Source: Phyllosticta citribraziliensis (taxonomy: Eukaryota). Taken from it: a DNA stretch of 64,000 bases. How positions within the stretch are numbered: the stretch's first letter is position 1; every line of letters begins with the position of its first letter. A model generated the notes under the pieces. It made no database searches and was not told the origin of the DNA. It worked only from the letters and a program-made list of their open reading frames with translations. This document shows, piece by piece, positions 3,621-64,000 of this stretch. Position numbers and translations under genes: made by a program. Location: NCBI RefSeq assembly GCF_038025025.1, contig NW_027117355.1, forward strand, positions 1 through 64,000, written 5' to 3'.

Positions 3621-5181
3621 TTAGCTAAATATAGTATTTACCTCTTTAAGTCTTATATTAAAGGGCTATTAGTTAGTTTTAAAATATAATAACTTTAGTT
3701 TTATATTTATAGTAATACTTATTTTTATTATAATAGTTAGTAATAAGCTAATTAAGAGCTATTTAGTATCTATTAATCTAGCTCTTATTAGTTATTATAT
3801 TTTTAATATTTTTAACTTTATTAATTATATCTTTAATAGATTTAAGATCTTTTATACTAATTATAATCTACTTCTTAAAAGCTATAATAGTAATAGATAT
3901 AGCTATTTATACTACTTATAGTACTATATTTTATTTTAATAACTTATCTAGTTAGTATTATATAGTAGCTAGATTTTATATATTATATATATATTTAGTA
4001 GTTTTAATCTAAATCTATTTAATAGAATAAAAGAAGAGTTATTAGCTTAAGTTTTTAATTAAAATAAAAATCTAGGCTCTTACTTAAAGAGATAATAAAG
4101 ATATCTTTTAATAATATTAAAAAATAGTAGATTAATATCTAATAAAGTAAGTTAATTAGCTAATAGTTAATAATTATAAGATAGAATAGTAGAAAAATAT
4201 AAAGCTATAGCTAACTTAGCCTATAGCTTATTTAAATATATATACTACTATATAGCTAAGATTTAGCTAATTCTATATTTTAATATTTTTATAGATTTTA
4301 TATCTACTTTACTATCTATCTATTCTATCTATATTAATTTATTTTATATACTATTAATAGACTAGCTACTCTTAGCTATTTTATAGATTATTAACTATAT
4401 TATATTAAAAAATAATAGATTATTATTATTTTTATTATAAGAGCCTCTTTAGCTTAGAATCTTACTTACTAGTCTTATTTAAAACTATAGACTATAAAAT
4501 AATAATATTTAAAGCTTCTAGTATATTTAAAACTATAGTATTTTATCTTAATACTATATAAGGTATAATTAAAATAAGAAAACTTATTAATAAAAAATAG
4601 ATAATAAGTCTTATTCTTTTATAAATAGTAAGAGATCTATTAATAGTATTATAGTATCTAGTAGAGTAAATTAATATAGACTACTAATAATTAATAGATA
4701 AGGAGTAAGAGTTATTATTATATAGTTAGTATAAAATAAGTATCTACTTCTAGGCTAGCTATAAATAGCTAGTATATATATAAGTAGTAAATACTAAGTA
4801 GTAAATACTATAAAATATAAACTCTAATATATATATAGTATATATAATAATAGTATTTTTTAATTAAAATTTAGCTAATTTTATACTTTAATACCTTTAT
4901 AGATCTTATATCTACTCTATTATTTAACTATTCTATTTATAGTAATTTATCTTAGTATTTTTATAAGTCTTATAGATCTTATATCTACTCTACTATTTAA
5001 CTACTACTCTATTTATAATAATTTATCTTAACTAGGTACTATAATAATCTCTCTTTACTTTTACTATAAAGAAATTTTAAAAGGCTATATAAGAAAAAAG
5101 AGTTTTTACTTATATATAATTATCTAATATTTCTATATAAGAGATATAAAGAATAGCCCTCTAGTATCCTACTTTACGCGA
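3621..5181. repeat. AT-rich RIP-degenerated repeat/subtelomeric block (probable transposon relic)
   Basis: Extremely AT-rich, abundant TpA, CpA/TpG and CpG almost absent, no ORFs; sharp boundaries against GC-balanced flanks. Confidence 0.85.
4897..5030 (+). repeat. Imperfect tandem duplication (~58-60 bp, 2 copies, ~73 bp apart) in the AT-rich block
   Basis: TTATAGATCTTATATCTACTCTA(T/C)TATTTAACTA...ATTTATCTTA at 4897-4954 and 4970-5030. Confidence 0.8.
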
Positions 5182-8100
5182 CTATAAGAATCGACTTGAT
5201 TTCCATCGATCGAGCCATCTACGTACTATCTCGACGGTAACCTTACTCCCCGCCTCAACGCTAGCCGTCTCAAACTGCACGCCCTCTCCATTCGCCTCCT
5301 GCTTTATGTCCTGGAAGAAGCCGAGCAACTTCAGGCCCGGGATCGCTTCTGCGCTTGCGTCGTCGGCGGCATTCTCCAGTCGTCGTACCCATTCGGTCAT
5401 GTCGACCCGCTCGAAAGGCGTTTCCGGGGCAGCGACAGCAAGGACGTCGAGGAACTCTGTCCAGGAAGAGGTAGCGGGGTTGACCAGGTTGTGCACTGCG
5501 TAAGACTCCTTCTGTTCTGTGGCTTCGCCGTTGGCGACGGTGTCGTTTTTGTTGCAACCCAATTTCTCGCTGATCGACGAAGCGCACATGTCGACGGGTA
5601 GCCAATTGACGACGGTTCCTGGGAGCTCGGGCATGGCCTGCAAGTGTTTGAGTCCGGTCGCGATCATGATGGGCCACATCTCCGAAGTGTTCCATACGCC
5701 GAGGCGTGAGTGTCCGCAGAGTTGACCGACGCGGAAGAGCTTGACAGGACTAGAGAGGGCCGCGGAATAGTGCTGAGTCACTCGTTCCACTGAGAACGAA
5801 GGCCATGTCAGTATGTGACAGGGCATCAAGATCGAAAAGGGCGGTAGCAACTGACCGATGTACTTGCTCTGTCCATATCCTGTGCTCAACGCCACCCTTG
5901 GGTCGTCGCCGACGGGCTCTTCGAGCACATTGCGCCCCTTGGCTGCTTCTCCCATGCATGCGGCGACACTGCTCATGATCGAGAACGTCTTTTGGGTGCC
6001 AGTCTGGCAAAACTTGAGAAGATGCATCGTCCCTGCAATCCGTTTCGTTAGCGACGCACACTTTTCAACAGGAATACGAAAGCCGTACCCTTCAAACAAT
6101 CCTTCTCGAACTCTTCCACCTTTTGGTTGAAGTCCATCTTCCATGCGTTGTGAACCACAACAGTCACTTCTCGAGTCAGCATGTCGAAAAGCTCTTCCCC
6201 GCTACCGAGATGTTCATCTTTCATGTCGTATGGGATGGCGTGTATCTTGCCACTGCAGTAAACGGCCTCATCATAGCCTCGTTGCTTCAGCGAGTGGATG
6301 AGCTTGATGCGCGGATCTGGGCCGCGGATTGCGCAGTAGACTTTCGAGACGTGTTCTTGCGCGACGAGATTCTCGAGCAAGGCGTTGCCGAGAGCACCGC
6401 TGGCACCGGTCAAATAGACGACTGCTCCCAGGCTTTCTGGGGGCACCGTTGTTGACTGAGAGTTGGTCCATCCGTCGATCGTGGAGTTGTAGCTCTGGAT
6501 GAGGTCCTGAACGTAGTTCAACCGTTGCGACTCGTTCGCCTCGGCTGGTGCGCCGCCATTTTTGAGGCCTTGGAGATAGACTAGCAACTTCTCGACCGAC
6601 GGACATTCAAAGATGAACATCAATGGAAATGTGCCGAATCGTTTGACAAGGCGCGACCTCAGTTTCACAGCGCGTTGTGAGTCCAAACCAAGGTCGTAAA
6701 AGCTCGTTCCGTCCTCGACAGCTGAATGCTCCTTGTCGCAAACTTCGGCTACCGACGCCCTGACGAATTCTCTGTCCGGCAGAGAGACCAGCTTGTCATC
6801 AGAAGGTCCTTCATCGGCTGGAGCGGCACCGAGGTAGCTTTCGTACAACGCGTCGACGCGATCTCCGTAGATTTTCCACGCCTCCTTCCTTCGCACGTTC
6901 CCTTTCGGGGTCACTGGGAGACTCTCTCCTGCGTTCAGTACCAGTACCATTTCCCTGTCGATACGTGCGTGCTTTGCGCTCTTCTGGTTCACCCGGTCGA
7001 GAACTTGCAGGAAATCTCCGCTTTCACTTGTGATTCCTTCCGCCAGCTGCACAATTGCCGCGACGCATGGTCGGCCATTGCCGAAGACAGCAGCTTTGTG
7101 GACAATCCCGTGGCCTTCTTCTTCCAGTAAGGCTGCCATTGTCCCTGCATGTGTCTTTTCTCCGTTGTCCAGAACAAGCACATCATCTTTCCGGCCGAGC
7201 AGCACAAAGTTTCCGGATCCCGGTGGGTCTTCGAAGAATAGATCATTGGTGCGGTATGGGTTCGGCGCGTCAGGGGCAAGCCACAGCTCCGCGGTGAGCT
7301 CAAACCCTTTGTAGATGACACACTCGAAGAGGCGAGTTCCAGCTTCAGAGTCATCTGCACCCACTTCTGTTAGAGGCTCCATCTGCACGAGCGGCGATTC
7401 CGGGTAAAGGTTGCGTAATCGGTAGCAATGCGGATTGTCCCGGGTGTGCGGGATGCTTCTGAATGGAGGTCCGATTTCAGTGCTTCCGTAGGTAGTCTTG
7501 ACGTTGACTCCTTTTGCGACCAACTCCTTGAGAACCTTCTCACCAAGTGGCGCGCCACCCGGTTGCACCACCTTCAAGTCCACGAGCGGGGAAAAGTCAT
7601 TTGTCGTGGCTGAGATGTACCCGTACAAATCTTCGATGACGCTTGGTGCACTGTGCAGACAATCGGCCGGCATGCCCACAGCAGCGAGTGCGCGGAAGGC
7701 CGTCAGGATAGTGCCGGGGGCCGGGGGCCACTGCAACGGAGGCATCGTCGTGGGAAGACCATTTGGCAGACCAGAGAAGGCAATGCAAAGACCCGCAATG
7801 TGGAACCTTGGTCAATGTCAGCCGATTGGGAAACGTCTTGTTCGCGAATGCTCCCTGGACACTTACAGCGGAAAACAGAGGTACCAGTTGTCCACCACGA
7901 ATGTGGGGAACAAGCGGTACATGCGTGCAATCAAACACAGACTCCGGTTTGTGTGAATGATTGGCTTCGGCATTCCTGTCGACCCAGAAGAGTGCAAGAC
8001 CATGGATTGGAGATTCCAGACGTCCTGAGCTTCGAATCCGTTGACCTTGGACTCATCATCGTCCTCCTTTTCTTTGCTCAATTCCAGTTCCGCCAGAGAC

Positions 8101-8922
8101 ACGAGCTGAAAGACTGTTCTTCCATTCTCCTTCTCTACTTGAGCGTCGAGAATTGTGGCATTCTCCTTGTCGGCGATGATACCCACGGCTTTGCACACAC
8201 CCAACAAGTGCTCTCGCGCGTTTGAAGCGTTCTTGTTGCTCAGGAGCAGGATCCTCACTCTCAACTGGTTGAGCGCTATTTGCGCAATGAGATAGTCAAT
8301 CGTGTTGCCGATTCCGAGAAGCGCGATAGTTGGTTGCTTGTGCGTGCGATTGGCATCCTGTATCTGCGCCGCAAGAATCTGCGCGTAGATACGGACAGCT
8401 GAGCAGACCAAGCCGTAGAACTCGTGCCAAGTGACAATTCGAAAAGAGTCATTGGCGGTGGTGGTGGGAAACAGAAAGGCCGGGTTTGTCGGTTGGGTTT
8501 GAGCGTTGTGCTTGACGAGCGAGGCGATGCTATTCAACTCCGGGTTCGCAAACCTGTTGGGGTGTGAGTCTTGTACTTGTATCTGCGTGGTCCAGCGTAG
8601 ATGGCATTATTTTCCCTTGTCGCAGCTGGTGTCGAACGGAAGGACGAGTGCCAGTATACTCCCAAAGAGGTCTTGTGGACGAATGCTCCCTGAGTCCAGC
8701 CACGATTCCAGGAATCGCCATCTTCTTTGAGTTTCACAGTGCTGTGACTTGACAGAAAGGCTAGGCGACATACCGTTTGCTATGCGGGTGTCCATGAAGA
8801 TTCCAAAATTTCTTGACTCTTTCCGGCGCATCTTCTGCCGGGAGAATGCTTGGGTCCATGATCTCTGGAATCACTTCATCGCCCGCGGTTGCCGACACGT
8901 CCGATAAAGCAATGGGAGCCAT
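5182..8922 (-). CDS. NRPS-like adenylation-thiolation-reductase (A-T-R; carboxylic acid reductase-like) enzyme
   Basis: A-domain motifs HSSGSTGMPKPI, YGSTEIG, YRTNDLF, GRKDD, PVTPKGNVRR; carrier motif LGLDSQ; R-domain LTGASGALG, HNAWKMDF, GYGQSKY; exon 1 MAPIALSDV.. splices in frame (KR|FANPEL) to ORF 7863-8537; several introns. Confidence 0.92.
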
Positions 8923-9573
8923 GACTGTAAAGCAACAACGGCAAGAAGAAAAAGACAAAATCAAAGATCTGTCGCGAGGATCCAGATCCTTAAATACCAC
9001 GCGACAGGATGAGCAGAAATACCAAATTACTGATGCAGAAAGTCGCATCAGCCCTGGGGTGGGCAGAACGGCAACTTGCGCGGCGGGTCTTTCCCGTGCC
9101 GCAACTCCGCAGTTCGCTGCTTTGCGAGTTCAAGTCAAATCATTGGCAGCAACCAACACATGTGATGGACAATTGTGCACTATCGGATCCAATCCTTGGC
9201 GGTTGCGACGGTAGTATCGGCGTACTGATTTGTGGTGTTGATAAGTGGTCCCTCTCTCGGCTTATCGTCCTGGCTCCCGGTAGATAGGACGACATCCAAC
9301 GCCTCCCGGACGAAGACCGATTTCGCGGTTTTGAGAGTGATTGGACTGAGGACAAATGTTTAGGCCTGGATGACGGAAGAAGAGGTATCGATAGAGGCTG
9401 ATAAGACGTTTGATTGCGTCGTGAGACATGATTGTTGAAGAACGATATACATTTCGTCGGTGTACCGCCAACGCCGCGCCGCTGCTGCTGCGCAAATCTC
9501 ACCTTGACAAAATCTCCTTTTCGAATCTTTGCAGCGCTGGGTCTTTGATCCACCTGCTCAACACCAAACCATC
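8923..9573. promoter_or_regulatory. Divergent promoter between the NRPS-like and NCS1 genes, with clustered GATA sites
   Basis: GATAAG at 9240 and 9400, CTTATC at 9261, AGATAG at 9282; CTTGGCGG at 9195 (PacC-type GCCAAG on -); TGTGGTGTTGA at 9231. Confidence 0.55.
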
Positions 9574-11332
9574 ATGGGACTCAGGCAACGTCTGGAACTG
9601 CGATCCGAAAATTCGGAGCTCGAGGCAAATGGCGAGAGCATTTCAAACAAGGACATGGATCCGATTCCACTGGGGTCACCCGAAAGAACATGGACATGGC
9701 CAAGCTTGCTGGGCTTTTGGGTTGCGGAGGCCTTCTCCATCTCCATGTATCAAGGTACGTACAAGAGCCATGAACAAGGAGCAGTCATTGACGCGCACAC
9801 AGTCGCTTCATCGTCCGTGAACAAAGGCCTGAATCCTGGTCTTGCCATTCTCGCAGTCATCGTCGGACATTTGCTCGTCTGCGTGCCGGCTATGCTTGAC
9901 GCCTTCGTTGGTTGCATTTTCGGCATCAATTTCCCCGTCTTCACACGCGCGTCGTTCGGCACTCGAGGTTCATACTTTGCTGTCTTCGTTCGCGGAGTCG
10001 TGGCTGCTATCTGGTTTGGTACACAAAGCTTTCAGGGCGGACAGTGTCTCCAGGTCATGATCAGTGCAATTTGGCCCAGCTTCAACGATTTTCCGAACCA
10101 CCTACCTGCCAGCGCGCACGTTACAAGTGCGGAGTTGCTGTGCTTTTTCTTGTTCATTTTGTTGCAATTGCCGCTCCTTTGGCTACACGTGTCGACATTG
10201 AGATGGATGTTCATGGCAAAGACGCTTTTGATGCCAGTCTTCGGCTTGACTTTGTTCATCTGGGCGCTGGTGGCTGGTTCGTTCCTCCGGAGCATTCGAT
10301 TGGTAGCGCAACATGCTGACAGAGCGCAGCTCACGGCTTTGGACCAACATTTTCTCGACCAACCAAGATTGCCGATGGCACTCCAGTTGCAGTTGTCTTC
10401 TTCCAGTGTGTCACCACAGCAATTGGCCCCAAGGCTACCCTTGCGCTCAACATGCCCGACTTCACGCGGTACGCCAAGTATCCGCGGGAAGTCTTCTGGA
10501 CACAAGCGGTTGGGCTCTTGGTCCTAGTGACGATGTGTGGCGTGCTCGGTGCGACAGTGTCTAGCGCGTCGGAGGTCATTTACGGGCAAGTGACATGGAG
10601 CCCGCTCGAAGTCGCGGTGCTGTGGGAGAACCGGGCGGCGCAATTCTTCGCGGGTCTCTGCTGGGCTTTTGCGGTCATTGGCACCAACATATCGGCGAAC
10701 AGCGTGAGCTTCAGCAACGATCTGGCGCTCTGGTTCCCAAAGTACATCAACAACAGACGAGGTGCATACGTCTGCGCGCTCCTGGGCATTTGCACTGTTC
10801 CTTGGAACATTCAGTACAAGTAAGCGACCCTGACTCACCATTGACTCTCATGATCTGACCTGAAACGCTCGTCGGCAGCGCAAAATCATTCTCCTCGTTC
10901 CTCAATGGCTACAGCCTCTTCCTGGGTGCCATTGCGGGCATCATCATCACAGACTTCTGGATTTGTCGCAAACGCCGTCTGTCGCTTTCATCGTTGTATG
11001 ACCCACACGGAATTCACCGTTACTTCTCCGGTGTGAACTTCCGAGCCATCATTGCCTTTATTTGCGGCATCGTGCCAAACATGCCGGGCCTTGCTGCAGC
11101 GTGCGGAGCGACAGGCGTGCCGAAGGGCGCAACGTACGTGTACAGCTTGAGTTGGCTGGTGAGCACGCTGGTAGCTGGTCTTGTGTACTGGGTATCGTTC
11201 AAGGTTGTGCCGTTCCCGGTGGATGAGAAGCAGGAGTTGGTGATTGAGGGAGGCGAGGTCGTGTCGGAGGACGCGCAATGGGTGGATGATAAGCACAGGG
11301 ATGCCGAAGCTTGCAAGGAGATACGGTCGTAG
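9574..11332 (+). CDS. NCS1 family (Fur-type) nucleobase/allantoin/hydantoin permease
   Basis: NKDMDPIP..RTWTW, GINFPVFTRASFG, WFGTQSFQGG, NMPDFTRYAK, NISANSVSFSNDL, FPKYINNRRGAY; many TM segments; three introns. Confidence 0.93.
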
Positions 11333-11795
11333 GGAACAATCGCATGCGACGAGGATAATGACGACATTGGCGAAGGAGCCCTGAGAAAAGCGTAGACAAA
11401 TAACCTGAGGATGTGGAGTGGTGGTGACTTGATGATGGAGCCTCCGGAGACGCGTCGCGACCCGCGTCTTGCCGGGTTTGGCGGGGTCGTGGATTAGATA
11501 AGCAAGGCCCTCGTCAGCCACGCCGACCAAGACCAGCACCAAACCACCTCGACACGGAGACTCCCTCTCAAACTCCGCTCTTCTTTCACTCTGGTCATCA
11601 GTCGGTGTTTGTTTTGCGTCAAAATTCTCATTATTCTGTCTTGTCCACCGTATTTCTTCATTGCGTTCGCCGAAACACCAAAACCCAAACGTCTGGCCGT
11701 CTTCGATCTCCGTCAAGCAAGAGCTCTTTCCCAAGGCTCAAACAAGTCGTCTTCCAATTTCAGTCTCTGCTTTTCCCGTTTTTTTAGTTCCGTCC

Positions 11796-13633
11796 CTACG
11801 CCACCAGGTTCTCCGGCTTATCCCACTCAGCCGCTTCTCCGCGAGGCTTGCTCAGCGTGCTCTTGCCGCGGCGCAAAAACTTTCCATCTCCCTTGGCACC
11901 GACAATGCCGCCGCCATCGCGATCCCAAATAACGCTACCGCGCAAGATCGTGTAGCGCGGCCAGTTGGTGAAGCGCATGCCTTCAAAGGGTGTGTAGTCG
12001 ATGGCATGATGGAGATGAGCGTTTGTCAGCGAAAAGGGCGTCATCGAGACGGAGGTGCCGTCTGCTGCAGCAACCTGCTCCGCGGTGGGGTACCAAATCA
12101 CAAGATCGGCGTCATACCCTGGCGCGATGGCACCCTTGGTGTTTCCCAGCCCGTACAGTTTCGCTGGATTAGTCGAAGTTACCTCTACGAACTTCTGAGG
12201 CGTCAAACGGCCCGTCAGCACGCCTCCCTCCCACAACGTCGACATGCGCGTCTCAACGCCGGGCAATCCATTGGGCACTTGGCGGTAATCTGGCTGCGAG
12301 GTCACATCTGAAGGGTCGGCAAGACCGCGCTTCTTGCCGCAAGGATGGTCGTACTGCGACGTCGCGTGGTCAGAGGAGAATGTTGTGACGCTTCCATTTG
12401 CGAGCCCACGCCACATGCCGTCGAGGTCTGCCCGGGACGCGCGCAGAGGCGGGGAGCATATGTGCTTGGCGCCCTCAAAGGGGTCGGTAACGGGATGGGG
12501 TGCCCGCAGGGCAGCCGAGGTCAAGAAGAGGTAATGGGGGCAAGTCTCGGCATGAATGGGTAAGAGACGGGTCTGAGCTTGGCGCACATGCGACACCGCA
12601 GTTGGAGAAGACATGTGTACGAGAAGGATGGGTGTATCTGTGAGTTTCCCGAATGTCAGTTCGCTGGATCAAGAAGACGACACACGACCAAGGCAGGCAG
12701 GAGATTCAAACTCACCGACGAGTTCAGAAATCGCAATGGCGCGGTATGTGGCCTCATCCTCGGCAATCTGTGGCCGCGAGATGGAATGGTAAAAAGGTGA
12801 GTTGAGGTTTTTCTCCATCAGACGTTCGCCGATCCACGCAATCATGTCCGCATTCTCTGCATGGACCATGGTCGTCATTCCAAGGCTTCGAGTGGCCATC
12901 ATGACATCCAACATTTCTTTGTCGCCAAGCTTCAGAGGATCGTAAGTCATGTACAGCTTCACGCTGCTGATGCCATCAGCCATCATCGCGGGCAGCTCGC
13001 CAGTCATGATGGCGGGCGTGGGATTGGTGAGAATGATGTGGAAACCATAGTCGCAGTACGCCTGGCCGGTTGAGCGACGATGGTAGTCTGCCACGACAGG
13101 GAACAAAGACGTGTCGGCGCGAGTCTGCATCGCGAAGCAAATGACGGTTGTTGTGCCGCCAGCAATAGCGGAACGGGTGCCAGTCTCGAAGTTGTCTCCA
13201 GTGCTTGCAACCTCAATCGACGAATCCTGCGTGGAAATGTAAGTTCTCGGCCTTCAATGCATCGAAATCACGGCAACAGAACATTTGCCCTCGGCTTTTC
13301 CTTTTGTTTCTGTCCAGAAGTTCCCTTGGCTTTCTAGAATCAGAGACGAGCGAGTACATACTTGGTCCAGGTGTACGTGCGAGTCAACACCACCAGGCGT
13401 CACATACGCGCCCTGTGCATCAATCACGTTTGTTGCTGCCAAAATCGATGCCAGGTTCTGGCCAAGCAGCAAAATCTTGCCATCCTTTACAGCAATGTCT
13501 TGGGCTGGATGAACGTGAGCCGCTGTCACCTCGAAGCATGTCAGCACTTGCACAGCTTCTTTTTGTTTGCAATGGATTCGCTTACGACTGTGGCGTTCTG
13601 GACGAGGAGATCGACTTCAATTTTGACAACCAT
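11796..13633 (-). CDS. Dihydropyrimidinase / D-hydantoinase (cyclic amidohydrolase)
   Basis: PGGVDSHVHL, SAIAGGTTT, SSVKLYMTY (carbamylated Lys), VHAEN, FSSDH, PNGLPGVETR, STNPAKLYGL, DYTPFEG; three introns. Confidence 0.93.
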
Positions 13634-14011
13634 GATGGAAACTTGCCGCGCACGAGGAGCATTCGTGGGCAAGCGGCCATGTTAGTAGTAGTCCGCCAAG
13701 AACAGCTGTGGTGTTGCGGTGTCAGTCGGCTTGCCTATCTCTTCCGATAACCTCTCGACGTACTTATCAACTGGCGTCGGCCGCCTGTGCCGCACAACCT
13801 TCAACACCACACGGAACCGCAACCTTATCGCGACGCGCACAACCAACGGCAATGCTCAACGCTCTCCGGTCGGCCTACGGGCATCCCGTAACGACGAGCT
13901 TGAATGTTTAGAACGCCATGTTGATCTACTTATGCCCTCGATCCCCTGCTTGCGAACACGCGGTGCAGGACAACTGTTGTTGCAGAGACCAGCAATCCCA
14001 CTTCCGTTACG
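13634..14011. promoter_or_regulatory. Divergent promoter between the hydantoinase and the carbamoylase-racemase fusion
   Basis: 378 bp; GATA sites at 13735, 13745, 13763, 13824; CCGCCAAG at 13693; TGTGGTGTTG at 13707 (+) and 13801 (-). Confidence 0.55.
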
Positions 14012-15817
14012 ATGCCGCGCACTATCCGTCTTGCCGCCGCCCAGATGGGCGCGACGCACTACGCGGATCCCCGCCCGAAAACGTTGCAGCGCATGATTAC
14101 GCTGCTCGAATCCGCATCTTCAAAGGGCGCTCAAGTTGTTTTGTTTCCCGAAACGGCCTTCACCACCTTCTTCCCCCGCCATTTGATCAGTGATCCTGTT
14201 GAGCTCGACTCTTTCTTCGAACATGGCGACATTTCGACTCAGGCGCAGACTAAGCCCTTGTTTGATAGGGCAAAAGAGTTGGGTGTCGACATTTCCGTCG
14301 GCTTCGCGGAAAAGACGGATGAAGGCGAGACATTCAACGCCTGCATCTACTACCACGCTAAGACTGCCTCGATTCTTTCAAAGTACCGCAAGATACATCT
14401 GCCTGGCGACTTTGAACCTTTCGCGGATCCGGAGGCCACCAATCAGCTCGAAAAGCGATATTTCAAACCCGGCGATCTTGGCTGGCAAGCGTTTCGCGTA
14501 TCTGGGCTTGTCGAATCTCCGCCTGAACGTGGCGATCCCATCTTTGGCATGATGATATGTAACGACAGGAGATGGGCTGAAAGTTGGAGAGTCCTTGGTC
14601 TGCAGGGAGTGGAGGTCGTTTTGTGTGGCTACAACACCGCCGGATTCGCGCCACACCTCTGGGGCTCCGACAAGAACATGGATCCAGACCAGGCACGCGG
14701 AAAGGCGCTCTTCCATCACAAGCTGGTAATGCAGGCCCACAGCTACACCAACGCCTGTTTTAGCGTCAGTGCCGCTCGTTGCGGTTTGGACGACGGCAAG
14801 TATGATCTCATCGGCGGGAGCTGTATCACCGGTCCTGAGGGAGAGCTGCTGGCCGAGAACTCAACTTTGGAGGATGAGGTTATTGTCGCCGACTGTAACT
14901 TGGATGAGTGCAGAGCAGGGAAGGAACGCACATTCGATTTTGGCCGCCATCGGCGCGTTGAGCATTACGCCCGTATCACTGAACAAACGGGTGTCACGGA
15001 GCCCCCCAAGCTGTCGACGGAACCAAATGGCAACACTGCTGCTACGAACGCTCCCTCTGCGCGTACATCGGACAAGAAAATTCGCGTCCTTCTGATAAAC
15101 CCAAACAGCACGAAGGCCATGACTGATGCTTGCGTCTCCATGGCTCAATCTCAACTTCCTCCGGATGTCATTCTCACTGGATTCACGTCGCCGCGGCCTG
15201 CTCCGAATGCAGTAGAGGGTAACTTCGACAACATCATGTCCGCTGCCGCGGCAGCTCGGGCTGCGCTTCCACTGGCTGCGACACATGACGCCGTCTTGGT
15301 CGCGTGCTACTCCGACCACGCCCTCATTCGCATGTTGCGCGAAGAACTCCCGCATCAGCCTGTAATCGGAATCATGGAAGCCTCCCTCTTCGCGGCGCGA
15401 ACTCTGGGCGGTCGCTTTGGTCTGATTGCTGTCAGTGAGCGGAGCCGTGTCATGCACGAGGACTCGATCAGGCACTACGGCTTCGACGGATTCTGTGCAG
15501 GAGTTGTGAGCTGCAAGCTTGGCGTCCTTGACTTGCACGATAAGAGCCAAGAAGAAGTCATGGCGATTATGTGTGGAGTTGGCAAAGAGCTGGTGGAGCG
15601 CGGCGCTGACGTGTTGACGCTTGGGTGCGCTGGTATGACGCCTTTGAAGGCCGCCGTTGAGGAGGCTGTCGGAGAAGATGTGCAAGTCGTTGATGGTGTA
15701 CTGGCGGGCGTGCAGCACTTGAGTGGAATTGTCCGGATGGGAGGGCGAACAGCCAAGAGGGGAGTCTACAAGAGCTCGGCAGCTGGAAGGAAAGCAAGAG
15801 GTCAGGACTGGATATGA
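14012..15817 (+). CDS. Fusion protein: N-carbamoyl-D-amino-acid amidohydrolase (nitrilase superfamily) + Asp/Glu/hydantoin racemase
   Basis: 601-aa intronless ORF; N-domain FPETAFTTFFPR, KYRKIHLPG..LEKRYFKPGD, ICNDRRWAE (E-K-C triad, D-carbamoylase-like); linker; C-domain LINPNSTKAMT, ACYSDH, IGIMEAS, LGCAGM. Confidence 0.92.
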   Translation: MPRTIRLAAAQMGATHYADPRPKTLQRMITLLESASSKGAQVVLFPETAFTTFFPRHLISDPVELDSFFEHGDISTQAQTKPLFDRAKELGVDISVGFAEKTDEGETFNACIYYHAKTASILSKYRKIHLPGDFEPFADPEATNQLEKRYFKPGDLGWQAFRVSGLVESPPERGDPIFGMMICNDRRWAESWRVLGLQGVEVVLCGYNTAGFAPHLWGSDKNMDPDQARGKALFHHKLVMQAHSYTNACFSVSAARCGLDDGKYDLIGGSCITGPEGELLAENSTLEDEVIVADCNLDECRAGKERTFDFGRHRRVEHYARITEQTGVTEPPKLSTEPNGNTAATNAPSARTSDKKIRVLLINPNSTKAMTDACVSMAQSQLPPDVILTGFTSPRPAPNAVEGNFDNIMSAAAAARAALPLAATHDAVLVACYSDHALIRMLREELPHQPVIGIMEASLFAARTLGGRFGLIAVSERSRVMHEDSIRHYGFDGFCAGVVSCKLGVLDLHDKSQEEVMAIMCGVGKELVERGADVLTLGCAGMTPLKAAVEEAVGEDVQVVDGVLAGVQHLSGIVRMGGRTAKRGVYKSSAAGRKARGQDWI

Positions 15818-16047: not shown

Positions 16048-16989
16048 CTAATCTTCAATCGTGAAGTAGTTCCACCTACCGCGCTCAAATCCTTTCTCTC
16101 CGAGTTTCCTCGGCCTTCCCGGCAGCTCCGTCCACTCGGCAACCTGCTCAGCAATCCACCGGAGCGACATTTGACGGCACGTATCATCGTAATTGCCGCC
16201 TCCGCCAAGTTCTCCGGTATATTTCTTACTGGGATTCAACCGCTGGACAGCGTTGATGATCGGATGCATCGTCCGAAGCGCATTCTCGTATCTGACCTTC
16301 CGAGGGATTTTTTGGCTCCTATGTTGGTCTTGAAACACGAAGCTAGGGTCGTACACGCGATATCTCGCGTCTTTTGGAAGGAACTGTACCGCTGCATCAT
16401 GGGGAGCGGTGTCGTCGTTCACTTCCAATTGAGCCTCAGACGGCATGGTTGTGACGAGATAGATCGTTGAGGCCTGCTCGTCGTGCTTCAGGATTTCTTC
16501 TTCCACTGTTCCATGGTGCCATTGATCGACCTCGTACGCCTCGAACAAATCTGGATACCTCTGCTCCGTTACTTCTCCATCGTGCGGCATCGGGTCGAAA
16601 TGCGTTTCAAGCAGATACTTGGTTGCGTACCATTCAAAAAAGTCTTTACGGTCCTTGTTAGTCCCGAAGACTATAGCGTGCTCACCAACCTTGTACTTTC
16701 TGCTCGGCTTTTCCCTGGGATTCTTGTCGTTGTCTCGAAAGTGGGCTCTCATGAACCCGTTAGCCGCCTTACCGCAGTCTGCCTCGTAGTGATACTCGGC
16801 ATGCCTGTCCAGGCATGCATTGAGTAGCTTGAGGATCGCATCCACAAGCTGGTGTTGTTTTGCCCCTCCGAAATGTTCAAATTGATCATTGGTCGGCAGG
16901 CCCCTATCTGAGAGCAAGGTGCGCAGCACTCGATATGCGCCGTCGAGGTCCATCGGCTCGTCAAGAAGGGGGAAACCTAGGTCGCTCAT
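16048..16989 (-). CDS. Hypothetical protein (313 aa, intronless)
   Basis: Long ORF with globular-protein composition from MSDLGFPLLDEP; no family recognised with confidence. Confidence 0.7.
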   Translation of the reverse strand: MSDLGFPLLDEPMDLDGAYRVLRTLLSDRGLPTNDQFEHFGGAKQHQLVDAILKLLNACLDRHAEYHYEADCGKAANGFMRAHFRDNDKNPREKPSRKYKVGEHAIVFGTNKDRKDFFEWYATKYLLETHFDPMPHDGEVTEQRYPDLFEAYEVDQWHHGTVEEEILKHDEQASTIYLVTTMPSEAQLEVNDDTAPHDAAVQFLPKDARYRVYDPSFVFQDQHRSQKIPRKVRYENALRTMHPIINAVQRLNPSKKYTGELGGGGNYDDTCRQMSLRWIAEQVAEWTELPGRPRKLGEKGFERGRWNYFTIED

Positions 16990-18013
16990 AGTTGAAATCG
17001 TCCGCGGTCGAAAAAGTGTCGTCGTAGTAAATGGTGGAGAGTCGATGTCGAGATTGCGTGCTTGTTTCGAGGTCGAGGCGAAGGAAAGCTGAATTATATA
17101 TTCTGTTCTCTTTCTTCGGTCTGTTTTGTTCATACATTGTTCACATTGCAGCCTTTGTCGCCAATCGCATCAAGACTTCTTTGTCTGTTTTTTGTTCAAC
17201 TTGCTCTTTCAGCACTATGGCCGAATTTGGCATGCGAGACCTGTTTGGAGGTCGACAAGGAGCATTCACGGGCATCAAAAAATCCACAGAGATCTCCGGG
17301 GATTATTTGGGTCGAGTTTCGGTTCATGGGAAGCTCATAATTTCGTGCCATGCTTGCCACCAGAGATAGGTATTTCTCTACCGACCGTCCTGCGAAACCA
17401 CATCAGCCTTCGACTTTGTCGTTTCTACACAAAGTATTGATGTTTTTGTTGCTCTCGGACGATGGCTGAATGTCAAAGCCAACAGCACCGGGCGGGGATT
17501 CGACCAAAATAGCTTTGTCTCGAGGAACAAAGACACCGTCAATTCGCCCAATCCACGATCCGGGCTGTCTTTTTGAGCCTCAACACCACGCATCCTCTCG
17601 TCGTCTCTTCAAAGACCACCCAAAACGGCACTCAAACCGGCAAGTGGTTGATCGGGCCGACGCACGAGCTCTTGACCACTTTCAGGCCTTATCATCGCGC
17701 TATCACCTTATATCATAAGCATTCAATTTTTTTCCCTCGTCCTCTTCCACCGCAATCTTCACGTCGGCGCCTTCCGTCCATATTTACCCGGACCCCGAAG
17801 TCGTCACGACGAGCACGTCCGCGAGAAGAAGAAGCACCGGAGGCCTCCAGCTCGCGGGAAAAAAAAAATGGGCCCGGCAAGACGGCGGCCTGACGACACG
17901 CCAATCACTTGCACAATGACCTTCTAGATCCAGCAGCGCGATTATTATTTAAATGAGATGGCGGAACTCCATTCCTGCGTTGCCCCCAGGTCCCTCGCTC
18001 AACTACTCCCACG

Positions 18014-60035: not shown

Positions 60036-63000
60036 TCAGTTCTTGGACCTCTTGCCCTTGGGCACGCGAAGCGCCCAGTACAGGAAGAAGGCGCCGAAGA
60101 TGTTGAAGACGACGAACACCCACATGAGGCCGAAGTTGCGCCACGCGTCCTTCCAGTAGATGTTGACGGCCGCCAGGAACTGGTTGGTGCTGCTCATGGC
60201 GCAGTACGTGCACGAGTCGGTCGCCTGCGGGTCGAGCAAGTAGCCGCCGCCTGACAGCTGGATGTACGGCTCCATGTACGCTCCGCACGTCTGGTTGTTG
60301 GCCGGCGCGAACACGAGGTACTCGTTGTCGGCGCACGTCGCGTCCGTGTTGGCCACGCCCGTCGACAGCATGCCGCTGACGAGGTACGTGAACGGCGAGA
60401 GGCGGTACATGAAGATCCAGAAGCCGGGGAGCGCTTCGGGAGTGGCGAGGACACTGGGAAGAGGTTAGTTGCGTTGCCACGTGCTGCGAATTCAGAAAAC
60501 TTACCCGTTGAAAATCAGCGTCAGGGTGAAGAGCAAGTTGGCAATGTTGCCACCATTCTCGGCCGTCTCGACTCCGGCAATGATCATGTTGGTGAAGGTC
60601 GAAGTGAAGACCAAAAAGACCCAGACAAACAAGAACATGAGGGCGCCACGCTCGTGCACCGCGCCCGTCGGCTCGGCGTTGCGGTAGAGGCCAATGGGGT
60701 AGTACCAGGTGAAGAAGAGGATGATGCCAGCAAGACTGTTCCACGGCAGCTCAACGACAATGTTGGACAGCATAAACGCCTTCCACGAGTAGGCTTTGCT
60801 CGGACGCTCGCGCGCCTCGTACAGCGCGCGCTGCGTTACAAAGTGTGGCATGATTTGCTGCACCAAGTTGCCAAAGATGGTCATGAGCATGAAAATGGAG
60901 AACATTTGGTTCTGCAGTCCCTGCGACGTGTTGCGCGCCTTGAAGAAGGAGAAGCCGACAAACAGACCAGAGAACATGACGAGCGCCAACTTGGCGTAAA
61001 TGTACGATGGAGTGCGCCAGTACTGTTCAAACACACGCTTGGTGACTTCCCAGATTTGAACAGTCATGGGAGCAGCAAACTCGCGGTAGCTCGTCTGTTC
61101 GTCGGTGGCACTGGGCTGGGTGACCTCTGGCAACTGCTCGCGCATTTCCTTGAGTTCATTCTTGACTCCAGTGTACTCCGGGCTGTTGCGCCAAGTGTCG
61201 TGCCAGTCGATGTCGGTGTGGGTTCCTGGAGCAGCACCAATGACTTCGAGCATCCATTCAGCGGGGTTGGCCTCGGCCGGGCAGGGGTGTGCACCGTTGC
61301 GCTCAAAGTAGCTTGTCAGGACGTGGGAGTTTTCGCCAATGTCGCCAAAGTAGACAGTCCTGCCACCCTTGGCCAAGAAGAGCAGGCGGTCGAAACGCTG
61401 GAAGAGCATGGCAGAAGGCTGGTGGATGGTGCAGAGAACCGCCTGGCCGTTCTTGGTCAGCTTCTCCATCAGGTCGCAAATGGCCCACGAGGTTTGAGAG
61501 TCGAGGCCGGAGGTGGGTTCGTCGAGGAAGAGCAGGAGTTGAGGTTTGGCAGCGAGCTCGACACCAATCGTGAGGCGCTTGCGCTGCTCGACGTTGAGAC
61601 CTTCACCGGGAACACCGACAACCGCATCAGCGTACTCTTGCATGTCCAAAAGCTTGATGACTTCGTCGACGTAGGCAATCTTCTCGGCGTGGGGAACGTG
61701 GGCAGGCTGGCGAAGCAGGGCGCTAAAGTTGAGCGCCTCGCGGACCGTGGATGTTGAAAGATGCAAATCTTGCTGTTGGACGTAACCAGTCTTGCGCTGG
61801 AAAGAGGCATCGCGCTGACGACCGTCGACAAAGGCATCTCCAGTAATGACACCCATCGTGACACGAGTCGCGAGAACATCGAGCAAAGTCGTCTTGCCAG
61901 CTCCAGAGACACCCATGAGCGCTGTCAGGGTTCCCGGCTTGACCCAGCCATCGACGTGGTCGAGAATGCGACGGTCCCCGCCCTTGATCTTAATGTCATA
62001 GCACATGTCCTCCCAGTGGAAAATGGCAGTCTGTCGCTGGATGACGGCAGACACGTCGCGCTTGATGCCCGTGCCCTTCTCGACGACCTGCTTCGAGCCA
62101 CCAGCGGATTCCTCGTCGGAACCAACAGTAGGAGGAATTTGGCCGCGGCGGAAGACCAGGACCTCGCCCTTGGACTTTTTGGCCGAAATGAACTCGGTCG
62201 CACCCAGATACGTGCAGAGGAAGAAGATCATGAAAGCGATGAGGATTCCAATGTTGCGCCACTTGTGGGAGTGGTAGTACTGGAACGAGCTGTTGATGTA
62301 CGCGTCACCTTCGACGAAGTTTTGGCCCGGCTGGGAACCGACCGCGCTGCATACGTAGTTCGACGGGCTGACACCCTCGTAGCCAGGTGTCGAGGGAGAG
62401 GGTACAAACGCAGAGCAAGAGAAGTTGCGGTTGTGGAACTCGTTGATCATGAGCGATTCAAAGCCGTACGAGATTGGGTCCAGGTAGTTGATCCAGCGCG
62501 ACCATCCTAGCATGTACCGCGTGGGAATGACGAAGCCAGTGTAGATGACCAGGGCCAAGATCAAGATGGCAGCGGGGGCCATGGCCTGCGATAGGGTGCG
62601 CGAGACCGAGGCAATGGTTCGGAAAAGCATCGACATGACCAGGGTGAGGATGAAGGACGTGAGGACGAAGAAAAAGAAGGGTCCCGGCTCGCGTCGCAGA
62701 TTGGTCATGAAGTACAGGGTAAGGTTGAAGACAAAGGCGTTGAGGATTTTGTACGGCATGTCCGTGAGCATCTACAGTTGTTAGCGCTCGTCATTTGAGG
62801 GGTTAAGAGAACATACGGATGCATAGGCCTCGGCTGACGGATGGTACAGGGCATACCGCGCGTGCTTTTCCACAATCGGGCGTTGGGCATACAGCGTGAG
62901 GATTTCGAGGGCCGAACCGAAGGCGTTGAAGAGAATGGCAAAGAACAACAGCGCGCCGCGAGAGTAAAAGGAGGAGCTGGTGGACGGCAGGTTGTAAAAG

Positions 63001-64000
63001 ACACTGCTGAGAATGAGGGCCATGATGGTGTTGCCAAAGAGCTGGGTTGCGGTGATGCTCGGATCACCCTTGAGACGCTGAAAGCCACGCCAAAGACACA
63101 GCCGCACCTGCTTGCCATACGAGAGCGTGTAGGGCGACTTGACACGCTGGCCCCTGGATTGCTGAGCCTTGCGGCTCTCCTTGAACCTCTCGAGGTACTC
63201 GCCGCCGATCTGATATTTCTTGTCGTAGTCGTCTATGTCGCGCAAGAGCTTGGCGCGCTCTTGGCTGGCCTTCCAGCGCTGAGCAAACTCTTGTGGGGTT
63301 CGGGGGACCTTGTCGTCCCAGCCGGAGCGGACGACACGTTCTTGGGGCGAAGTCATGGACGTCAAAAAGTCGGGCGTGGTCTGGCGATCTGGGCAGTCGA
63401 AGCCCATGTTGATGAAATACTGCTTGGCTTCCTCTGCGCGGCCAAAGTAGATTTGGTAGCCCTCGTACAGGACAATGACCTTGTCGAAAATGTCATATGC
63501 CGACTGCGGGGCCTGGTAGATGGAGACGCAGGCAGTGCAGCCCATCAAGTCGGTCTGCATGCGGAGCGTCTTGCAAAACTCAATGGCGTTGGCGGAGTCG
63601 AGACCTCGAGTCGAGTTGTCCCAGCACTGCAGGGGAGCCTGGGAAAGGGTGGCCTCGGCAATCGACACACGCTTGCGCTCACCGCCGGATACACCACGGA
63701 CAAAGTCGTTTCCTACACGCGTGTTGACGGTGTGGGAGATGCCGTACATGGCCATGACGACGTCCCTCATGTGGTTGGCGTAGGTCCACTTGTCGACATC
63801 GCCAGGGGTATTTCTGGGGGCTCGGGCGCGAGCAGCAAAAGCGAGGGTGTCACCAACGGTCATGTTGGGGAAATGGACGTCGACCTCGGCCGTGTAAATG
63901 GCCTCGCCACGGAAATGCTTGTGCATGCTCTTTCTGCTGATTCCCTGGTAGTTGAGGTACGAGTCGTTTTCGATCTCGAAGCCGTGCGTCTCGCCAGACA
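60036..64000 (-). CDS. PDR-type (ABCG) multidrug ABC transporter, 5' part beyond the window
   Basis: [71 protein letters not shown]. Confidence 0.97.

Follow-up and report, generated by a model that had tools for sequence, protein, structure and literature searches.

A conserved gene cluster of Dikarya fungi encoding an NCS1 permease, a D-hydantoinase/dihydropyrimidinase-type enzyme, and a D-carbamoylase-racemase fusion, with a predicted role in cyclic ureide use

We analyzed 64,000 nucleotides of the fungus Phyllosticta citribraziliensis (assembly GCF_038025025.1, contig NW_027117355.1, positions 1 to 64,000 of the forward strand; this whole stretch is called the window below) and describe three adjacent genes encoding an NCS1 permease, a cyclic amidohydrolase, and a single polypeptide that joins a D-carbamoylase (DCase) to a racemase. 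The trio is a real, conserved cluster across Dikarya. On balance, we favor the reading that it takes up a 5-substituted hydantoin or a related cyclic ureide under nitrogen control, racemizes it, opens its ring, and decarbamoylates the product. The cluster is uncharacterized, and its chemistry is largely predictable from homology.

Results

Structure of the three genes

Gene models were drawn manually, using shifts of reading frame, splice signals, and open reading frames (ORFs). The window is about 55% G+C, its introns are short with GT..AG ends, and the closest protein matches of its genes come from Phyllosticta species at 93 to 96% identity. The cluster genes are as follows.

Exons 9574-9754, 9803-10276, 10330-10819, and 10879-11332, plus strand: NCS1 permease gene, 532 amino acids, 4 exons
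Exons 13633-13586, 13529-13362, 13226-12716, and 12637-11796, minus strand: amidohydrolase (D-hydantoinase/dihydropyrimidinase) gene, 522 amino acids, 4 exons
14012-15817, plus strand: DCase-racemase fusion gene, a single intron-free ORF, 601 amino acids

The permease and amidohydrolase genes are convergent, and the amidohydrolase and fusion genes diverge from a 378-bp promoter. Each of the three models matches an annotated Phyllosticta orthologue along its whole length. An earlier note, made from the letters of the window alone, had placed the trio at 9574 to 15817, and these ends proved exact: 9574 is the permease ATG, the first of the trio, and 15817 is the final base of the fusion stop codon, the last. 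The three families that it had named, the carbamoylase-racemase fusion included, were borne out by comparisons with Pfam, solved structures, and equivalog models. The arrangement is far beyond chance, because the same one is found in many fungal genomes.

The fusion protein joins a D-carbamoylase to a two-cysteine racemase

The fusion protein is made up of the following parts, all on the plus strand, and each half is 96 to 97% identical to its Phyllosticta orthologue.

Amino acids 1 to ~335 (nucleotides 14012-15016): DCase domain (PF00795 at amino acids 6-303, E = 1.4e-43)
Amino acids ~336 to 350: low-complexity linker between the DCase and racemase domains
Amino acids ~351 to 601 (nucleotides 15062-15814): racemase domain (PF01177 at amino acids 359-569, profile positions 1-210 of 211, E = 3.2e-53)

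Over residues 1 to 328, the DCase domain matched eleven solved DCase sequences (6led, 1erz, 1fo6, 2ggk, and others) at E values of 1e-71 to 5e-67, the best being 6led (residues 1 to 306, E = 9.5e-72). Other solved carbon-nitrogen (CN) hydrolases were far weaker: N-carbamoylputrescine amidohydrolase gave an E value of 3.5e-14, and an archaeal nitrilase/beta-ureidopropionase entry gave 9.7e-14. The Glu-Lys-Cys triad, E47 (nucleotide 14150), K127 (14390), and C183 (14558), aligns with its counterparts in 6led and is invariant in 25 of 25 aligned fungal fusion proteins. All 120 fungal homologues carry the motif CNDRRW, as do 151 of 152 bacterial hits, and 94 of the 120 fungal homologues carry GYNT. 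We take CNDRRW (Asn-x-Arg-Arg after the catalytic Cys) and the Asn-Thr of GYNT to form the substrate alpha-carboxylate site of DCases. A Gln before LEKRYF was considered as a fungal DCase peculiarity and dropped as an ordinary variant, since bacteria carry QH (74) and QQ (73) at this place.

In the racemase domain, C432 (nucleotide 15305) and C539 (15626) align with the two positions at which 3qvj has Cys and 3qvk has Ser, and both are invariant in the same 25-row alignment. Among the 120 fungal homologues, 119 contain LGC[AG]GM and 107 contain the strict form of AC[YF][SG]DH. The domain is about 30% identical to solved allantoin racemases and likewise to racemases in bacterial DCase/hydantoinase clusters; a search of the ESM Atlas with the racemase part returned generic racemase clusters only.

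Both domains are present in all 120 listed fusion homologues (of 1054 at E <= 1e-10). These proteins are about 590 to 660 amino acids long and come from Dothideomycetes, Sordariomycetes, Eurotiomycetes, and the basidiomycetes Gloeophyllum and Neolentinus. An AlphaFold model built on the 25-row fusion alignment was set aside, its quality being too low for searching folds or interpreting active sites: its mean predicted local distance difference test score was 68.6, its predicted template modeling score was 0.50, and residues 303 to 354 and several active-site loops fell below 50.

The amidohydrolase keeps its metal site, and the permease belongs to the NCS1 family

The amidohydrolase matches the Amidohydro_1/3 Pfam profiles and aligns with its Phyllosticta orthologue P0122 at 93.5% identity (522 columns, 0 gaps). 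Among solved structures, it is nearest to the dihydropyrimidinase 2fty, which matches the two large exons at E = 8e-62 and 8e-35; bacterial D-hydantoinases come next. Equivalog scoring was done on P0122 (522 amino acids) rather than on the spliced window protein. P0122 lies above the cut-off of the D-hydantoinase/dihydropyrimidinase model TIGR02033 (435.9 versus 393.25; single exons of the window reach 202 and 159 bits) and below those of the allantoinase model TIGR03178 (207.8 versus 357.85) and of ErtD, hydantoin-5-propionate amidohydrolase (178 versus 650). The metal-site motifs are kept and align with 2fty: H67 and H69 in GGVDSHVHLDQ, K162 in SSVKLYMTY, H194 in MVHAEN, H250 in LLVHMSS, and D332 in FSSDHA. 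We take these residues, K162 as a carboxylated Lys, to be the ligands of a binuclear metal center. The enzyme is predicted to provide the ring-opening step.

The permease is 93.5% identical (537 columns, 5 gaps) to an annotated 537-amino-acid Phyllosticta "NCS1 nucleoside transporter." PF02133 matches its three large exons (E = 5.5e-30, 1.9e-33, and 1.2e-19) at profile positions 34 to 439 of 440, and on the orthologue P0241, TIGR00800 reaches 340.2, slightly short of its bacterial cut-off (353.1). When exon 3 was compared by itself with solved NCS1 structures, there was no match at E 0.01. The tag "Fur-like" for this permease comes only from the source names of its homologues (uracil, uridine, or allantoin permease). 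The permease is a predicted importer of the cyclic ureide.

The cluster is conserved across Dikarya

Gene neighborhoods in other fungi were read from locus tags and accession numbers as position markers. The hydantoinase and fusion genes are consecutively numbered in 5 genera of 4 classes, one of them a basidiomycete.

Colletotrichum jinshuiense: fusion/hydantoinase EsH8_III_001426/27, consecutive tags
Diplodia seriata: fusion/hydantoinase SLS55_008934/35, consecutive tags
Saccharata proteae: fusion/hydantoinase KAF2089408/09, consecutive accessions
Aspergillus cavernicola: fusion/hydantoinase KAL2825834/35, consecutive accessions
Gloeophyllum trabeum: fusion/hydantoinase XP_007869935/36, consecutive accessions

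The two are also consecutive in C. fructicola, C. chrysophilum, C. asianum, C. gloeosporioides, and several Colletotrichum sp. The permease is 1 to 4 numbers off in 7 genera: Diplodia, Colletotrichum (near in at least 7 assemblies), and the five below.

Emmonsiellopsis: FQN53_002020 versus 002022, permease close by
Onygenales sp.: FQN52_001062/63, permease close by
Meristemomyces: LTR85_010981/83, permease close by
Neodothiora: AAFC00_005802/04, permease close by
Aspergillus nanangensis: FE257_005702/03, permease close by

Outside Colletotrichum, the numbering agrees with the window order of permease, hydantoinase, and fusion. In Colletotrichum, 1 to 3 genes separate the fusion from the permease. 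The earlier note had raised the case that orthologues might be unlinked in other fungi; with consecutive or near-consecutive numbering in 5 to 7 genera, they are linked. The proteins of the cluster carry automatic names only ("carbon-nitrogen hydrolase," "N-carbamoyl-D-amino acid hydrolase," and "dihydropyrimidinase").

Unfused and alternative fungal arrangements

A scan of metagenome contigs gave five to six fungal contigs (L001 to L006), called fungal by their fungal transcription-factor, P450, and MFS domains, a G+C content of about 48 to 51%, and loose gene packing. On L001 to L003, a hydantoinase (52 to 60% identical), an unfused DCase (57 to 63%), and an unfused racemase (53 to 56%) lie within 5 to 13 kb. 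In Aspergillus steynii, the 767-amino-acid protein P0208 has the racemase fused to the hydantoinase. Taken with the DCase-racemase fusion, this protein indicates two separate fusion events for the racemase, one with the DCase and one with the hydantoinase.

A FastTree phylogeny of 83 DCase-domain rows places every fungal sequence in a single clade with a Shimodaira-Hasegawa-like (SH-like) support of 100; within this clade, the fused proteins (14 rows, support 87) are sister to the unfused ones (support 92). The rows of the tree comprise 14 of the 25 fungal fusion alignment rows, one metagenome locus in three, and one genome locus in two, leaving out hits shorter than 300 amino acids or with stops. 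In a hydantoinase/dihydropyrimidinase tree of 70 rows, the fungal enzymes again form one clade (SH-like support 100), and the fusion-linked hydantoinases form a subclade of 11 rows (support 99) apart from the L001/L003/A. steynii-fusion group and from the yeast enzymes. For this tree, 27 of 120 proteins were picked by hand and one in four low-identity bacterial hits was taken; hits shorter than 400 amino acids, and thereby L002, were left out, and 2fty is not in it. Since both trees are midpoint-rooted, they make a bacterial origin of the fungal cluster enzymes plausible at most.

Three further observations concern these arrangements. The fusion and hydantoinase of Botryosphaeriales (Phyllosticta, Diplodia, and Saccharata) are 82 to 83% and 72 to 74% identical, respectively, to those of Colletotrichum, versus 65 to 70% for most other Dothideomycetes, and both proteins group with Colletotrichum in the two trees; this closeness suggests transfer of the cluster between fungal classes, or hidden paralogy. 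Transcription-factor genes (PF04082 and PF11951), both of the Zn2Cys6 type, lie within or beside unfused DCase/racemase clusters at L002:6594-8760 (minus strand) and L005:5389-7149 (plus strand); domain scans of the window ORF pieces found no fungal-specific transcription-factor gene near the window cluster. Lastly, the DCase homologue P0384 (718 amino acids) is fused to a pyridoxal phosphate (PLP)-dependent enzyme domain, PF00291, a hint that, in some organism, a PLP-dependent step follows and uses the amino-acid product.

Some bacterial DCase loci contain the same enzymes as separate proteins

The nearest prokaryotic DCases are 44 to 53% identical and mostly alphaproteobacterial (Acetobacteraceae/Roseomonas, Bradyrhizobium, Methylocapsa, and Rhizobium). 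We collected 153 DCase-centered loci (L006 to L158), mostly bacterial, with at least one (L006) apparently fungal by tree. Their content within 10 kb is as follows.

Metagenome loci (74): racemase homologue in 21, hydantoinase of at least 35% identity in 16, both in 13
Genome loci (79): racemase homologue in 41, hydantoinase of at least 35% identity in 18, both in 15
All DCase-centered loci (153): racemase homologue in 62, hydantoinase of at least 35% identity in 34, both in 28

The DCase and racemase are adjacent and codirectional in 8 loci; none of these pairs is fused, and all 8 are split by stops or a frame change. A search of 1.84 billion cluster representatives yielded, in the best 150 of 3954 hits, one full-length fusion (P0361, which absorbs all fungal fusions).

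Promoters and expression

Two intergenic regions are of concern here.

13634-14011, 378 bp, unstranded: divergent hydantoinase/fusion promoter, common to both genes
8607-9573 (left border approximate), unstranded: candidate second cluster promoter, divergent, between the nonribosomal peptide synthetase (NRPS)-like reductase gene and the permease gene

The window contains 83 HGATAR sites. The hydantoinase/fusion promoter has four of them (13735, 13745, 13764, and 13825), a number reached by 1.8% of 378-bp intervals, and the permease upstream region (8700-9573) has seven, reached by 2.0% of 870-bp intervals. The nitrogen-catabolic role proposed in the earlier note fits these GATA-rich promoters, and expression of the cluster is probably under GATA-factor (AreA-type) nitrogen control.

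The exact 10-mer TGTGGTGTTG has 3 copies in the 64 kb, all within the two cluster promoters: 9231 (plus) in that of the permease, and 13707 (plus) and 13802 (minus), an inverted pair, in that of the hydantoinase and fusion. The permease promoter has a 1-mismatch copy at 9559 (minus). By estimate, about 0.1 exact copies are expected in the window; with one mismatch allowed, there are 13 matches versus 4.0 expected. The triple occurrence is the sole unusual aspect, and the distant fungal loci L001 to L006 lend no support, having only scattered 1-mismatch copies that are partly coding. Sites of the UaY type (CGG-N6-CCG) are absent from the cluster promoters (19 in the window versus 25 expected), which therefore show no link to purine regulation.

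Two RNA sequencing (RNA-seq) libraries of a single plant-metagenome study gave contigs of a relative (about 93% identity) that contain parts of all three genes. An RNA-seq joint from 12632 to 12716 (runs X5 and X6; five replaced letters) corresponds to hydantoinase intron 3 (12638-12715), and a contig over 14257-15353 bridges the DCase-racemase junction without a joint. Runs X1 and X2 were rejected as expression evidence; their contigs pass straight through introns and are probably DNA.

Neighboring genes in the window

On the other side of the candidate permease promoter lies the following gene.

5185-8606, minus strand: NRPS-like adenylation-thiolation-reductase (A-T-R) gene with AMP-binding, AMP-binding_C_3, PP-binding, and NAD_binding_4/thioester-reductase domains

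This gene diverges from the permease promoter. A relative (57% identical over 199 amino acids and 42% over 233) adjoins the hydantoinase in the unfused cluster L002 (L002:3-1448, minus strand), and none is present in the unfused cluster L003. Tentatively, the A-T-R gene may belong to the cluster as a fourth, lineage-variable member that would use the amino-acid product.

Next to the fusion on its downstream side is a 373-codon open frame (16048-17169, minus strand) that matched nothing in Pfam or NCBIfam and lacks a relative among the loci collected here. A homologue of inosine-uridine-preferring nucleoside hydrolases (PF01156; 17957-19054, or 17957-18745 in the Pfam scan, plus strand) follows 2 kb downstream of the fusion; its N terminus is signal-peptide-like, and a 1-mismatch copy of TGTGGTGTTG lies upstream of it at 17581. 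An AT-rich stretch at about 3900-5300 (34% G+C in 4001-6000 versus about 55% elsewhere), dense in AGATAA/AGATAG, abuts the 3' end of the A-T-R gene and may be a degraded repeat or a region resembling repeat-induced point mutation. A PDR/CDR-type ABC transporter gene (ABC2_membrane, PDR_CDR, and ABC_tran domains; 60504-63998, minus strand) runs off the right end of the window and is unrelated to the cluster. Scans of 11, 60, and 117 window ORF pieces found no member of the D-amino-acid oxidase, allantoicase, or dihydropyrimidine dehydrogenase families.

Discussion

A D-selective hydantoinase route and the evidence for and against it

We infer a pathway, including its substrate class, D stereochemistry, order of steps, regulation, nitrogen-scavenging role, and product fate, that would work like the bacterial D-selective "hydantoinase process," with a 5-monosubstituted hydantoin as the most likely substrate. 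First, the NCS1 permease would import the ring compound; second, the binuclear-metal D-hydantoinase/dihydropyrimidinase would open one enantiomer to an N-carbamoyl-D-amino acid; third, the two-cysteine racemase domain of the fusion would turn the unused hydantoin enantiomer into the usable one; and fourth, the Glu-Lys-Cys DCase domain of the same polypeptide would remove the carbamoyl group to give NH3, CO2, and a D-amino acid. Regulation would be AreA-type GATA control via the two divergent promoters that share TGTGGTGTTG.

We favor this D-selective route because of the specific DCase match, the two-cysteine racemase in every homologue, the two independent fusions, and the conserved neighborhood. 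That the enzymes are kept together and have been joined by two independent fusions argues strongly, on comparative grounds, for a single chiral substrate shared by all of them.

Several observations weigh against this interpretation. The top solved matches of the racemase domain are the allantoin racemases 5lfd (E = 1e-24) and 3qvj (E = 7e-23), and the nearest bacterial equivalogs of the permease, scored on P0241, are allantoin permeases (195 and 160 bits versus cut-offs of 620 and 800). The racemase is joined to the carbamoylase and not to the hydantoinase, contrary to what substrate channeling would lead one to expect. Hydantoinase and dihydropyrimidinase are one enzyme family that hydrolyzes dihydropyrimidines too, and for this reason the sequence cannot separate the two substrate classes. 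No permease relative was found in the unfused fungal clusters L001 to L003 and L005 (by tblastn and a permease hidden Markov model [HMM]) or in any of 158 loci (by tblastn and an HMM of 66 permeases, which matched 0 of 11476 ORFs); this locus set was centered on D-carbamoylases, and classical NCS1-containing hyu clusters are outside its reach. The tags of Vermiconidia calcicola are far apart (LTR37_018272 versus LTR37_015988), and in several Colletotrichum submissions, the fusion and hydantoinase accessions are 2 to about 180 apart (for instance, KAF4810515 versus KAF4810552); in these submissions the numbering may not be positional, and we counted the pairs as uninformative. The 10-mer was spotted post hoc, and about 0.7 shared 10-mers between the two promoters are expected by chance. 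RNA contigs across permease introns 1 and 3 keep the introns, and part of the "RNA" signal may therefore be DNA or unspliced RNA. Finally, no enzyme that would dispose of the D-amino-acid product was seen in the 64-kb window.

Alternative substrates and roles

An alternative that we regard as unlikely is reductive pyrimidine catabolism, in which the permease would take up uracil, uridine, or dihydropyrimidines, the amidohydrolase would act as a dihydropyrimidinase, and the CN-hydrolase would serve as a beta-ureidopropionase; the racemase would then epimerize dihydrothymine at C5 or be an accessory. The rank of 2fty, a dihydropyrimidinase, as the closest solved relative of the amidohydrolase, the passing by this enzyme of an equivalog model whose name includes dihydropyrimidinase, the source names of permease homologues (uracil or uridine permease), and the nucleoside hydrolase with the 1-mismatch 10-mer upstream all agree with such a role. 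The CN-hydrolase domain, however, matches DCases at 1e-71 versus 1e-13 for the beta-ureidopropionase-type entry, and it keeps CNDRRW and GYNT, the motifs that we presume to bind the alpha-carboxylate. The racemase is fused in all 120 listed homologues yet has no known role in pyrimidine breakdown, window scans found no dihydropyrimidine dehydrogenase family, and the nucleoside hydrolase begins with what resembles a signal peptide.

We think it quite improbable that the cluster is an allantoin or ureide route, with import and racemization of allantoin, ring opening to allantoate, and a DCase-like domain working as an allantoate amidohydrolase. The racemase and permease matches described above point in this direction, as does 3qvj itself, which was deposited as a "putative hydantoin racemase" and appears in one reference list as a Klebsiella allantoin racemase. 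Allantoate is formally an N-carbamoyl-alpha-amino acid, and the yeast DAL cluster has this trio of permease, cyclic amidohydrolase, and racemase for allantoin. Against this stand the failure of the amidohydrolase at the allantoinase model and its passing of the D-hydantoinase model, a racemase identity of about 30% to allantoin racemases that is equaled by racemases of bacterial DCase/hydantoinase clusters, and permease scores far under both cut-offs; moreover, the usual enzymes of fungi for this purpose are allantoinase and allantoicase.

We consider a role in biosynthesis or tailoring very unlikely. Here the trio would provide or recover a D-amino acid, as such or in its carbamoyl or hydantoin form, for the A-T-R reductase to activate and reduce to an aldehyde for a specialized metabolite. 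The GATA-rich, motif-bearing divergent promoter common to the A-T-R and permease genes would agree with this role, as would the A-T-R relative beside the hydantoinase in the distantly related L002 and the further product processing hinted at by P0384. Against it, of the two unfused loci that can inform on the A-T-R linkage, only L002 shows it (L003 lacks the gene, and the short L001 cannot tell); the importer and GATA sites point to catabolism; and the order permease-hydantoinase-fusion in Onygenales, Aspergillus, and Dothideomycetes leaves the trio self-contained. The probability that remains goes to other functions or to no shared function.

Completeness, literature, and significance

The earlier note had spoken of a complete eukaryotic counterpart of bacterial hyu gene sets. 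The clustering of hydantoinase, carbamoylase, and racemase with a permease stands; the word "complete" does not, because nothing scanned in the 64 kb removes the second nitrogen from the D-amino acid. The note had also known of no characterized fungal cluster of this kind. This overlooked the yeast DAL cluster but holds for the hydantoinase/D-carbamoylase type, on which we found no paper: full-text literature searches gave no description of the fungal cluster or of a DCase-racemase fusion. A 2016 study of the horizontal transfer of D-amino-acid enzymes (PMC5169069) reports many transfers of PF01177 genes into fungi, and its passages on this topic mention neither a CN-hydrolase fusion nor hydantoinase neighbors.

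The two independent fusions, the dedicated importer, and the linkage across Ascomycota and some Basidiomycota suggest that the enzymes share one chiral natural substrate. D-Hydantoinase, D-carbamoylase, and hydantoin racemase are industrial workhorses whose natural role is unclear even in bacteria. The cluster occurs in easily manipulated fungi, among them members of Aspergillus section Nigri, Paecilomyces variotii, Thermoascus aurantiacus, and Gloeophyllum trabeum, which puts its physiological substrate within reach of growth, induction, and deletion work. A bolder proposal, to which we give a low probability, is that the cluster represents the first D-carbamoylase pathway of eukaryotes, an old module spread through Dikarya that would convert racemic natural hydantoins to D-amino acids, with some lineages passing the product to a linked A-T-R or PLP enzyme; if true, it could reveal the natural substrate of the "hydantoinase process" enzymes. 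A one-chain racemase-carbamoylase may also serve builders of D-amino-acid cascades.

Comparison with known systems

The closest mechanistic analogue is the bacterial hyu system. Like bacterial D-selective hyu sets, the fungal cluster combines the same three enzyme families (DCase 44 to 53%, hydantoinase 37 to 46%, and racemase 27 to 36% identical), the genes are clustered (all three lie within 10 kb in 28 of 153 loci), and the catalytic residues are all kept. Unlike them, the fungal DCase and racemase are one polypeptide, whereas the 8 adjacent bacterial pairs are unfused; the fungal genes have introns and divergent eukaryotic promoters carrying GATA sites; and the fungal DCases form a clade of their own among the subsampled rows of the FastTree phylogeny. 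The fungal cluster also has an NCS1 transporter, unlike the 153 DCase-centered, mostly bacterial loci. Classical NCS1-containing hyu clusters (of the Mhp1 type) use an L-carbamoylase.

The closest solved relative of the amidohydrolase is PYD2 of Lachancea (Saccharomyces) kluyveri (2fty, 2fvk, and 2fvm), and the cluster-linked hydantoinases form a subclade separate from the yeast enzymes in the tree. The yeast PYD pathway uses an unrelated M20-type beta-alanine synthase and is not known to include a racemase.

The nearest characterized eukaryotic analogue is the DAL cluster of Saccharomyces cerevisiae (DAL4, DAL1, DCG1, DAL2, DAL3, and DAL7). It too is a nitrogen-catabolic cluster with an NCS1 permease (DAL4), a cyclic amidohydrolase that acts on a hydantoin-ring compound (DAL1), and a probable racemase of the Asp/Glu/hydantoin family (DCG1). 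The cluster described here differs in that its amidohydrolase is of the D-hydantoinase/dihydropyrimidinase type rather than the allantoinase type, its racemase is fused, and its downstream enzyme is a DCase where DAL uses allantoicase and ureidoglycolate lyase; and it spans Pezizomycotina and some Agaricomycetes, whereas DAL was assembled recently in yeasts.

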